A stretch of DNA of 64,000 bases from an uncultured Clostridium sp. (lineage in GTDB: Bacteria > Bacillota > Clostridia > TANB77 > CAG-508). The stretch is taken from contig URZW01000003.1 in NCBI GenBank assembly GCA_900552555.1, positions 40,680-104,679 on the forward strand, read 5' to 3'. A program made the translations under genes and the position numbers. The first letter of the stretch is position 1. The number at the start of each line of letters is the position of its first letter. Under the pieces are notes generated by a model that saw only the letters and a program-made list of their open reading frames with translations, was not told the DNA's origin and did no database searches. Below, piece by piece: positions 17,668 through 18,835 of this stretch.

Positions 17668-18708
17668 GTGAAAAAAATGAAAGTAACAGATTTTAATTAC
17701 AACTTACCAGAAGAATTAATAGCACAAGTACCACTAGAAAAAAGAGATGAATCAAGACTAATGGTTCTAAATAGAGAAAAACAAACAATAGAACACAAAG
17801 TATTTAAAGACATAATAGATTATTTAGAACCAGGTGATTGCTTAGTCAGAAATAATACAAAAGTTATACCAGCAAGAATTTATGGAAGAAAAGAAACAGG
17901 AGCACATGTAGAATTCTTATTATTAAATAACATAGAAGGAGATATTTGGGAAAGTATTGTAAGACCAGGAAATAAGCTTCATGTTGGAACCAAAGTAATA
18001 TTCGGAGATGGACTACTAGAAGCGGAAATATTAGATATAATGCCAGGTGGAACAAGAAAAGTGGAATTCCATTATAAAGGAATATTTAATGAAATATTAG
18101 ACCAAATAGGACTAATGCCATTACCACCATATATCCACGAAGAACTAAAAGACAATGACAGATATCAAACAGTATATGCAAAATATGAAGGCTCAGCAGC
18201 AGCACCAACAGCAGGATTGCACTTTACACCAGAATTATTAAAGAAGATAGAAGAAAAAGGTGTTAAAATCGCAAATGTAACATTACATGTTGGAATTGGA
18301 ACATTTAGACCAGTAAAAGAAGACGAAGTAGAAAAACACGAAATGCATTCCGAACATTTTTATATTAAGCAAGAAGATTGTGATAAAATAAATGAAACAA
18401 AAAAAGCTGGAAAAAGAGTAATATCAGTAGGAACAACATCATGCAGAGTGTTGGAAACAATTGCAGATGAAAATACTGGAATGGTACAACCAACAGAGGG
18501 AGATACTCAAATATTTATTTATCCAGGATATAAATTTAAATGTATAGATGGATTAATAACAAACTTCCATTTACCACAATCAACATTATTAATGCTAGTA
18601 TCAGCATTAGCTGGAAAAGATTATATAATGAAAGCATACAACGAAGCTGTAGAACAAAGATATCGTTTCTTTAGTTTTGGAGATGCGATGTTTATCGAAG
18701 GGATTTAG
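17668..18708 (+). CDS. queA: S-adenosylmethionine:tRNA ribosyltransferase-isomerase
   Basis: N-terminus [17 protein letters not shown] and the motif [10 protein letters not shown]; 346 aa. Confidence 0.9.
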
Positions 18709-18835
18709 GGACGTTCCTTGAATTCCCTCTTTTGAGGGAATTCGGGACACTCCTTAGAATACCCTAAATATATAAAAATATGGATTTAAGGAGTGTCCCA
18801 AAATCCCTTTATAAAGGGATTTTAAGGAACGTCCC
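18708..18835. repeat. MITE-like element family 2 (128 bp, nested palindromes, TIR GGGACGTTCCTT...AAGGAACGTCCC)
   Basis: Outer IR GGGACGTTCCTT/AAGGAACGTCCC. Inner IR GGGACACTCCTT/AAGGAGTGTCCC. Two internal hairpins, GAATTCCCTCttttGAGGGAATTC and AAATCCCTTTATAAAGGGATTT. It fills the whole queA-tgt spacer. Confidence 0.75.

Follow-up and report, generated by a model that had tools for sequence, protein, structure and literature searches.

The window, i.e. the whole stretch of 64,000 nucleotides (64 kb) analyzed here, carries the genes queA and tgt, adjacent and on the same strand, and the spacer between them is filled by a nested palindrome. The features of the locus are reported below, by position, strand (where one is assigned) and type.

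17677-18708, + strand: queA, 343 aa (open reading frame; PF02547 on the identical protein); its last three codons are inside the element
18700-18843, no strand: full nested-palindrome element, probably REPIN-like, family 2 (inverted repeat with 57-nt arms, folds, orthologous and paralogous copies)
18700-18719, + strand: left outer unit, GGGATTTAGGGACGTTCCTT (inverted-repeat search, family comparison, hairpin fold)
18708-18719 and 18824-18835: outer inverted repeat, GGGACGTTCCTT/AAGGAACGTCCC
18720-18743, + strand: junction hairpin A, GAATTCCCTC-tttt-GAGGGAATTC (10-nt arms, 100% complementary)
18736-18755, + strand: left inner unit, GGGAATTCGGGACACTCCTT (fits the unit pattern; unit spacing of 36 nt)
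18744-18755 and 18788-18799: inner inverted repeat, GGGACACTCCTT/AAGGAGTGTCCC
18757-18786, no strand: central AT-rich loop of 30 nt (loops 11-13% divergent; cassette layout)
18787-18807, - strand: right inner unit, AAGGAGTGTCCCAAAATCCC on the + strand (inverted-repeat and motif search)
18800-18823, + strand: junction hairpin B, palindrome AAAATCCCTTTA/TAAAGGGATTTT (12-nt arms, 100% complementary)
18824-18843, - strand: right outer unit, AAGGAACGTCCCTAAATCCC on the + strand (inverted-repeat and motif search)
18845-18851, + strand: ribosome-binding site of tgt, AGGAGGG, 2 nt after the element
18856-19983, + strand: tgt, 375 aa (open reading frame; PF01702)

The extent of the palindrome was evaluated by an inverted-repeat search, which assigns to it 144 bp (18700-18843), with two arms of 57 nt, 86% complementary to each other, and 30 nt between them. 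An earlier reading of the same DNA, based on the letters only and indicated here as the sequence-only reading, had described an element of 128 bp (18708-18835), starting 1 nt after the queA stop codon and ending 20 nt before the tgt start. Each of the motifs reported there is found by the search where it had been placed, but the inverted repeat reaches 8 nt further on either side, and both borders are therefore to be moved. Because complementarity runs over the whole interval, the queA codons GGG ATT TAG are part of the element: the stop codon is located at 18706-18708, and the start originally proposed, 18708, is the G of the TAG itself. On the other side, the gap to the tgt ATG at 18856 is 12 nt. 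The two inverted repeats and two hairpins of the sequence-only reading are all present; the element is, however, better described as four copies of a single unit of about 20 nt, GGGAWTTNGGGACRYTCCTT, two in each arm, with a spacing of 36 nt. What had been called "perfect hairpins" results from pairing between the tail of each unit and the head of the one that follows. The left outer unit may also form a 12-bp hairpin of its own, with GAATTCC (18720-18726). The motif GGGACRYTCCTT is matched 5 times within the 64-kb window, against 0.16 expected.

In the window, the element supplies the stop codon of queA together with the last two residues of the protein: the C-terminus reads GDAMFIEGI, while in relatives, where QueA is 340-341 aa long, GDAMFI is followed by a single N, Q or K. 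Ten metagenome contigs encoding an identical QueA carry the element, with changes mostly located in its loops. The element is also present at the orthologous site in three more species-level relatives (L056, L133, L181); in L181, one stem change removes the TAG, and queA stops at a codon further upstream. Relatives with a QueA 89% identical feature a queA-tgt spacer of 32-33 nt, where the element is absent; their QueA has the ending GDAMFIN. In a relative with a QueA 91% identical, the interval is occupied by an unrelated gene of 533-546 aa (L136 4106-5746, L137 4144-5745), for which Pfam gives no match. As shown by the relatives with an empty spacer, the element was gained or lost at queA-tgt during the divergence of the group; we infer insertion, rather than loss, as the direction. 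The sequence-only reading had indicated, as the case against itself, a conserved spacer with no other copies: what is found instead is a number of relatives lacking the element, and many copies elsewhere.

Some further observations concern the same site. In a lineage with a QueA 96% identical (L182, 2527-2570), a single unit of another sequence, CGGGATAAGGGGACGGGTCTTCAATCCCG, comes after the queA stop, about 30 nt before the end of the contig; insertions may recur at the 3' end of queA, or an ancestral element may have been remodelled there. In two strains with identical QueA, tgt is called as two open reading frames of 256 and 108 aa (L004 4179-5306, L008 2898-4025), which suggests a frameshift or stop, i.e. 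a possible tgt pseudogene, or an assembly error. Two Logan assemblies (L001, L002) start at the position equivalent to 18814 of the window, inside hairpin B: short-read assemblers break at the palindrome or repeat of the element.

The 20-nt unit was scanned against 185,579 species genomes, scored as 8-kb tiles. At least 118 tiles are matched by this unit, which defines family 2; with the exception of three chance matches, the tiles listed belong to a single group of uncultured, low-GC MAGs from the gut, labelled "Clostridium sp." or Clostridia and comprising CAG:354, UMGS1570, UMGS1423, HGM13682 and others, UMGS1570 alone accounting for at least 20 tiles. The genome-wide search for copies, as suggested by the sequence-only reading, thus reveals a dispersed, multi-copy family of small, non-autonomous palindromes. 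Among the matches listed, the units are mainly extragenic (126 out of 143, about 88%, are outside open reading frames) and enriched in convergent intergenic regions (25 of 78, versus 69 of 524 for co-directional and 7 of 70 for divergent ones). They are found as single hairpins, head-to-tail arrays, solo arms and full nested elements. Single-unit hairpins feature a stem of 12-16 bp and a CGU loop, with folding energies of -16 to -20 kcal/mol. Full nested elements, 120-157 bp long and sharing the architecture observed in the window, are present at 7 distinct sites at least; paralogous full-length copies are those in L029/L046, L127, L031, L097, L118 and L091. Several other copies also provide the upstream gene with a G-I-stop ending. 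The conserved core of the unit is GGGAC(G/A)..TCC. A GTAG tag is absent from the unit; the complementary strand does contain CGTC, but there it is part of the paired core and does not form an unpaired tag. When the literature was searched for the motif GGGACGTTCC, only unrelated papers came up. In the species of the window, one other family-2 unit is found in 226 kb of related contigs, some of them about 98% identical to the window; family 2 accordingly looks like an old, low-copy resident of this species.

In five contigs (L120, L112, L028, L060 and L179 10640-10820), an intact unit is preceded by three to five head-to-tail units of about 20 nt, increasingly degenerate, suggesting a slippage-type amplification followed by decay. 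A BLAST search of phages and plasmids with the element gave no match. A scan of viral contigs gave three matches, one of which, in L013 (identical in sequence to L057), is a genuine single unit, the others being due to chance. L013 is a predicted viral contig from IMG/VR, of the same bacterial clade: the unit hairpin, at 795-814, is followed by a T-run and is close to an apparent tRNA-type sequence, as judged by eye. A DNA uptake sequence was ruled out, the copy density being far too low, and so was a CRISPR, as the tandem units are not separated by spacers.

A candidate partner of the family was located by tblastn, with IS200 and E. coli RAYT (REP-associated tyrosine transposase) queries, which gave weak matches only. 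One of them led to a 258-aa open reading frame in L111, positive for Pfam Y1_Tnp (PF01797, E = 1.4e-11); another, in L070, is spurious, as it is found inside an 813-aa open reading frame. Between the widely spaced inverted units of L025, L111 (1273/1682) and L016 no transposase is found, but ordinary genes only. Y1 genes enclosed by inverted family-2 arms are present in L111, L087/L140-143, L148-151 and L072, while for those in L144-147 only the upstream unit is observed. The order of the cassette is constant: outer unit, junction hairpin and inner unit, then the Y1 gene, then inner unit, hairpin and outer unit in inverted orientation. The homologues from L087 and L072 are 40-53% identical to the L111 protein, and the further homologues, whose flanks were examined in L140-L151, 45-53%. 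These proteins, about 256 aa long, share an invariant NHxHLL (HUH) motif, the motif YIHxNPVKA and a C-terminal extension of about 110 aa, which in one homologue shows weak, sub-threshold matches to sigma-factor HTH models; one homologue was named RayT by JGI. A search of PDB sequences with the Y1 protein found no relative. The candidate recognition hairpins of the protein are those formed by the unit on the top and bottom strand, GGGATTTRGGGACGTTCCTTAAATCCC. No Y1/RAYT gene is present in the 64-kb window, and neither porB, next to which most of the Y1 genes are located (see below), nor a family-2 RAYT was found in the contigs of its species. Many Y1 homologues lie on contigs of about 1 kb, and contigs also break inside the element of the window, as expected of a sequence repeated in the genome.

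A second family of elements, family 1, is related to the one described above, and three of its members fill three consecutive intergenic spacers of the window.

4921-5059, no strand: family 1 element, from a related REPIN-like family, arms ATGTCCATTTGGGGACGGTTCTKTTTGGGACAT
6646-6784, no strand: family 1 element
8451-8586, no strand: family 1 element, with a more degenerate right arm

Family 1 is also multi-copy, with 29 loci in a scan of human-gut metagenomes. In L162 (1714-3049), a frameshifted RAYT-like gene (2140-2911) is preceded by a family-1 arm and followed, 3 nt past its stop, by a full family-1 element; this contig belongs to the assembly ULYJ01, also the source of L173, a contig about 98% identical to part of the window. 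The Y1 proteins of the two families are 33-37% identical over the aligned stretches. The sequence-only reading had proposed, for the two families, either a common superfamily or a common transposase specificity: the former is supported by the presence of RAYT-like Y1 genes flanked by both of them, while a single transposase does not fit with such a low identity.

Two other repeats are found in the window. At 15622-16085, downstream of the PNPase gene, a 464-bp insertion consists of an imperfect nested palindrome of about 420 bp, flanked by the 8-bp direct repeat TTTTCTAT (15614-15621 and 16086-16093). Besides the window, L005, L009, L010 and L011 carry it, whereas L003, L004, L006, L007 and L012, which encode the identical QueA, lack it and show a single TTTTCTAT. 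It looks like a strain-polymorphic, MITE-like insertion that duplicated its target site, with no relation to families 1 and 2. At 25740-26876, a segment of about 590 bp is repeated twice in tandem, with 70-85% identity, and is probably a duplicated gene.

The element found between queA and tgt is best read as a family-2 cassette minus its gene, since its arms and their order are those of the cassette, and a 30-nt loop replaces the gene. Judging from the layout, the central loop takes the place held by the transposase gene in the gene-bearing cassette, and it evolves freely. We therefore regard the element, with considerable confidence, as REPIN-like, non-autonomous and derived from a cassette that has at its centre the gene of a RAYT, an HUH/Y1 enzyme. 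By analogy with other enzymes of this class, the Y1 transposase would bind the unit hairpins in single-stranded DNA, and would cut and rejoin them without generating target duplications, so that gene-less copies could spread into extragenic DNA. The copy under study would have been inserted at the 3' end of queA before at least four species-level lineages separated from their common ancestor, its GGG-ATT-TAG replacing the original last codon and stop of the gene, and would have been vertically inherited since then.

Pfam labels the Y1_Tnp domain "Transposase IS200 like", and the cassette might be taken for an autonomous insertion sequence of the IS200/IS605 type, accompanied by miniature derivatives: an ordinary selfish element, rather than a domesticated, single-copy RAYT. 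The NCBIfam models, however, point elsewhere, since the proteins score 66-68 bits with the RAYT model (NF047646, REP_Tyr_transpos), although under its curated cutoff of 80, and only 17-20 bits with the IS200 one; moreover, the cassette is flanked by inverted repeats, not by distinct left and right ends. The many contigs of about 1 kb might point to several copies of the gene itself, yet one Y1 copy is seen per sampled genome. In L072 the gene is not beside porB, but this is an exception: in five lineages, whose Y1 proteins are 45-60% identical to the L111 one and whose PorB proteins are 84-92% identical, the gene is convergent to porB. A site conserved in spite of such divergence fits with a resident, vertically inherited gene better than with a hopping insertion sequence, and an IS200/IS605-type element appears improbable.

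The ability of the element to fold was evaluated both as RNA and as single-stranded DNA. The RNA folding suggested as a check by the sequence-only reading predicts a very stable, three-armed structure (-89.6 kcal/mol, z = -11.0, with none of 200 shuffled sequences folding equally well). As single-stranded DNA, the two strands reach -55.7 and -55.8 kcal/mol (z about -13), and the equal aptitude of both is a property expected of a DNA palindrome. In the predicted fold, the ribosome-binding site of tgt, AGGAGGG, is not paired with the element, and is therefore not sequestered. The first hairpin, formed by the left unit, is followed by a short U-tract, CUCUUUUG; the same hairpin, together with CTCTTTTG, is flagged as terminator-like, but one match against 0.9 expected is within chance. 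No canonical terminator T-run is present at the 3' end of the full element. Among the matches listed, T-rich DNA follows 42 of the 108 closed family-2 units, versus a background of 13%, an excess partly due to a built-in linker. No Rfam family is found in the element at the gathering threshold, and a permissive search gives only sub-threshold, generic long-hairpin (miRNA precursor) models.

When the copies of the window, L056 and L133 are compared, none of the 106 paired positions differs in any pair of species, while divergence amounts to 16-19% at the third codon positions of queA and tgt, and to 11-13% in the loops. No compensatory double changes are seen in the stems of these three copies. 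Since intra-palindrome correction alone would leave compensatory changes, the data are most simply read as purifying selection acting on the sequence, and the conservation of the stems points to a constraint, possibly related to a role in the host. Covariation, analyzed for two alternative local hairpins in 49 paralogous arms, is no better than in shuffled controls, and thus gives no support to selection on the structure, as opposed to the sequence.

A very stable fold, stems unchanged over three species while loops drift, and a short U-tract after the first hairpin are also what a lineage-specific structured RNA would offer, be it an attenuator, a processing site or a small RNA, evolved in place and resembling other loci because of a shared RNA motif. 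Such an origin is very unlikely, since the element is missing in relatives with a QueA 89-91% identical, and the same architecture recurs beside unrelated genes, at no fewer than 7 sites, and flanks a transposase gene; the equal folding of the two strands, the lack of compensatory changes and the negative Rfam search also argue against it. No better case can be made for a classical MITE, i.e. a deletion derivative of an insertion sequence with a DDE transposase, terminal inverted repeats and target-site duplications: the element would fit in its length of about 140 bp, its terminal inverted repeats, its position outside genes and its presence in several copies, but no consistent direct repeat is seen when the flanks of full-length copies are compared by eye, the sole gene found between matching arms encodes a Y1/HUH transposase, not a DDE one, and units are also found as singletons and head-to-tail arrays, as is typical of REPs. 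The label "MITE-like", used by the sequence-only reading, is thus better replaced by that of a REP/REPIN-RAYT type element.

The REPIN-like interpretation finds its closest known counterpart in the REPIN-RAYT systems of Pseudomonas fluorescens and E. coli (PMC3116915, PMC5581495). In both cases a Y1/HUH gene is enclosed by inverted repeat copies and keeps its position on the chromosome; inverted doublets without the gene, about 100-150 bp long, are scattered through extragenic DNA, along with singletons and clusters; no target duplication is seen, and copies persist at orthologous positions across species. The differences concern the host, here gut Clostridia, the absence of the GTAG tag, and the arms, which here join two different units by a hairpin, resulting in a four-unit nested palindrome; the protein is longer and divergent (about 256 aa, with the C-terminal extension, and below the NCBIfam RAYT cutoff), and the copy number is moderate, in the order of tens. 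Abundant REPINs have been described from Gammaproteobacteria, in association with RAYT Groups 2 and 3; in the RAYT literature searched, the only mention of Clostridia is as hosts of Group 1 RAYTs, whose flanking 16-mers are of low abundance. RAYTs bounded by long TIRs, unrelated to the GTAG REPs and forming modest genomic families (Di Nocera et al. 2013, PMC3733652), are also similar, but the TIRs described here are themselves composed of REP-like hairpin units; neither Firmicutes nor Clostridia are mentioned in the main text of that survey.

Other known repeats share single aspects with family 2. E. coli BIMEs are likewise composite, with several REP-type units that alternate in orientation, are joined by linker motifs and lie between the genes of operons, although their sequence is unrelated; BIME linkers bind IHF and gyrase in E. 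coli. The palindrome-associated miniature elements derived from IS200/IS605 share with family 2, by analogy, a Y1 chemistry, the recognition of hairpins and the absence of target duplications; they depend, however, on a multi-copy insertion sequence with asymmetric left- and right-end hairpins, whereas the family-2 cassette has inverted repeats at its ends and a gene that keeps its synteny from species to species. The Correia, RUP and BOX elements of Neisseria and Streptococcus pneumoniae also measure about 100-150 bp, lie between genes, are strongly structured and are transcribed together with their neighbours; BOX is, in addition, modular. Correia and RUP generate TA target duplications and have DDE partners, while no transposase is known for BOX. 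The element described here resembles them in size and structure, with no sequence similarity.

As to the role of the copy located between queA and tgt, an attenuator or a processing site, as suggested by the sequence-only reading, is physically plausible in view of the U-tract after the first hairpin and of the stems conserved across species. It is conceivable, though we lean against it, that the host now keeps this copy under purifying selection, as a structure lying between the two cistrons of a queA-tgt transcript. Possible roles would be 3'-end protection, partial termination at the first hairpin and U-tract, or decoupling of the two cistrons. More doubtful is a broader view, in which gut Clostridia of the CAG:354/UMGS1570 group would maintain long-lived REPIN-RAYT partnerships of their own, with two families at least, each with a divergent, C-terminally extended RAYT, and in which copies such as the queA-tgt one would have been adopted by the host and kept by purifying selection.

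REP and REPIN-RAYT systems have been studied almost solely in Gammaproteobacteria, and the literature found names Clostridia in passing, without reference to this repeat. The present analysis adds a sequence-defined family, along with its candidate transposase, in abundant uncultured bacteria of the human and animal gut, and accounts for recurrent contig breaks in their metagenome assemblies. It also indicates that such elements can rewrite the ends of genes, as in queA, where the stop codon and the last two residues are element-derived. Paired positions fixed over a species-level divergence, while loops drift, provide a natural test to distinguish elements that are merely tolerated from those used by the host. 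If host-adopted REPINs were indeed present in these Clostridia, the idea of vertically inherited, beneficial replicators would extend beyond Proteobacteria, and would be linked to the expression of genes for the queuosine modification of tRNA.
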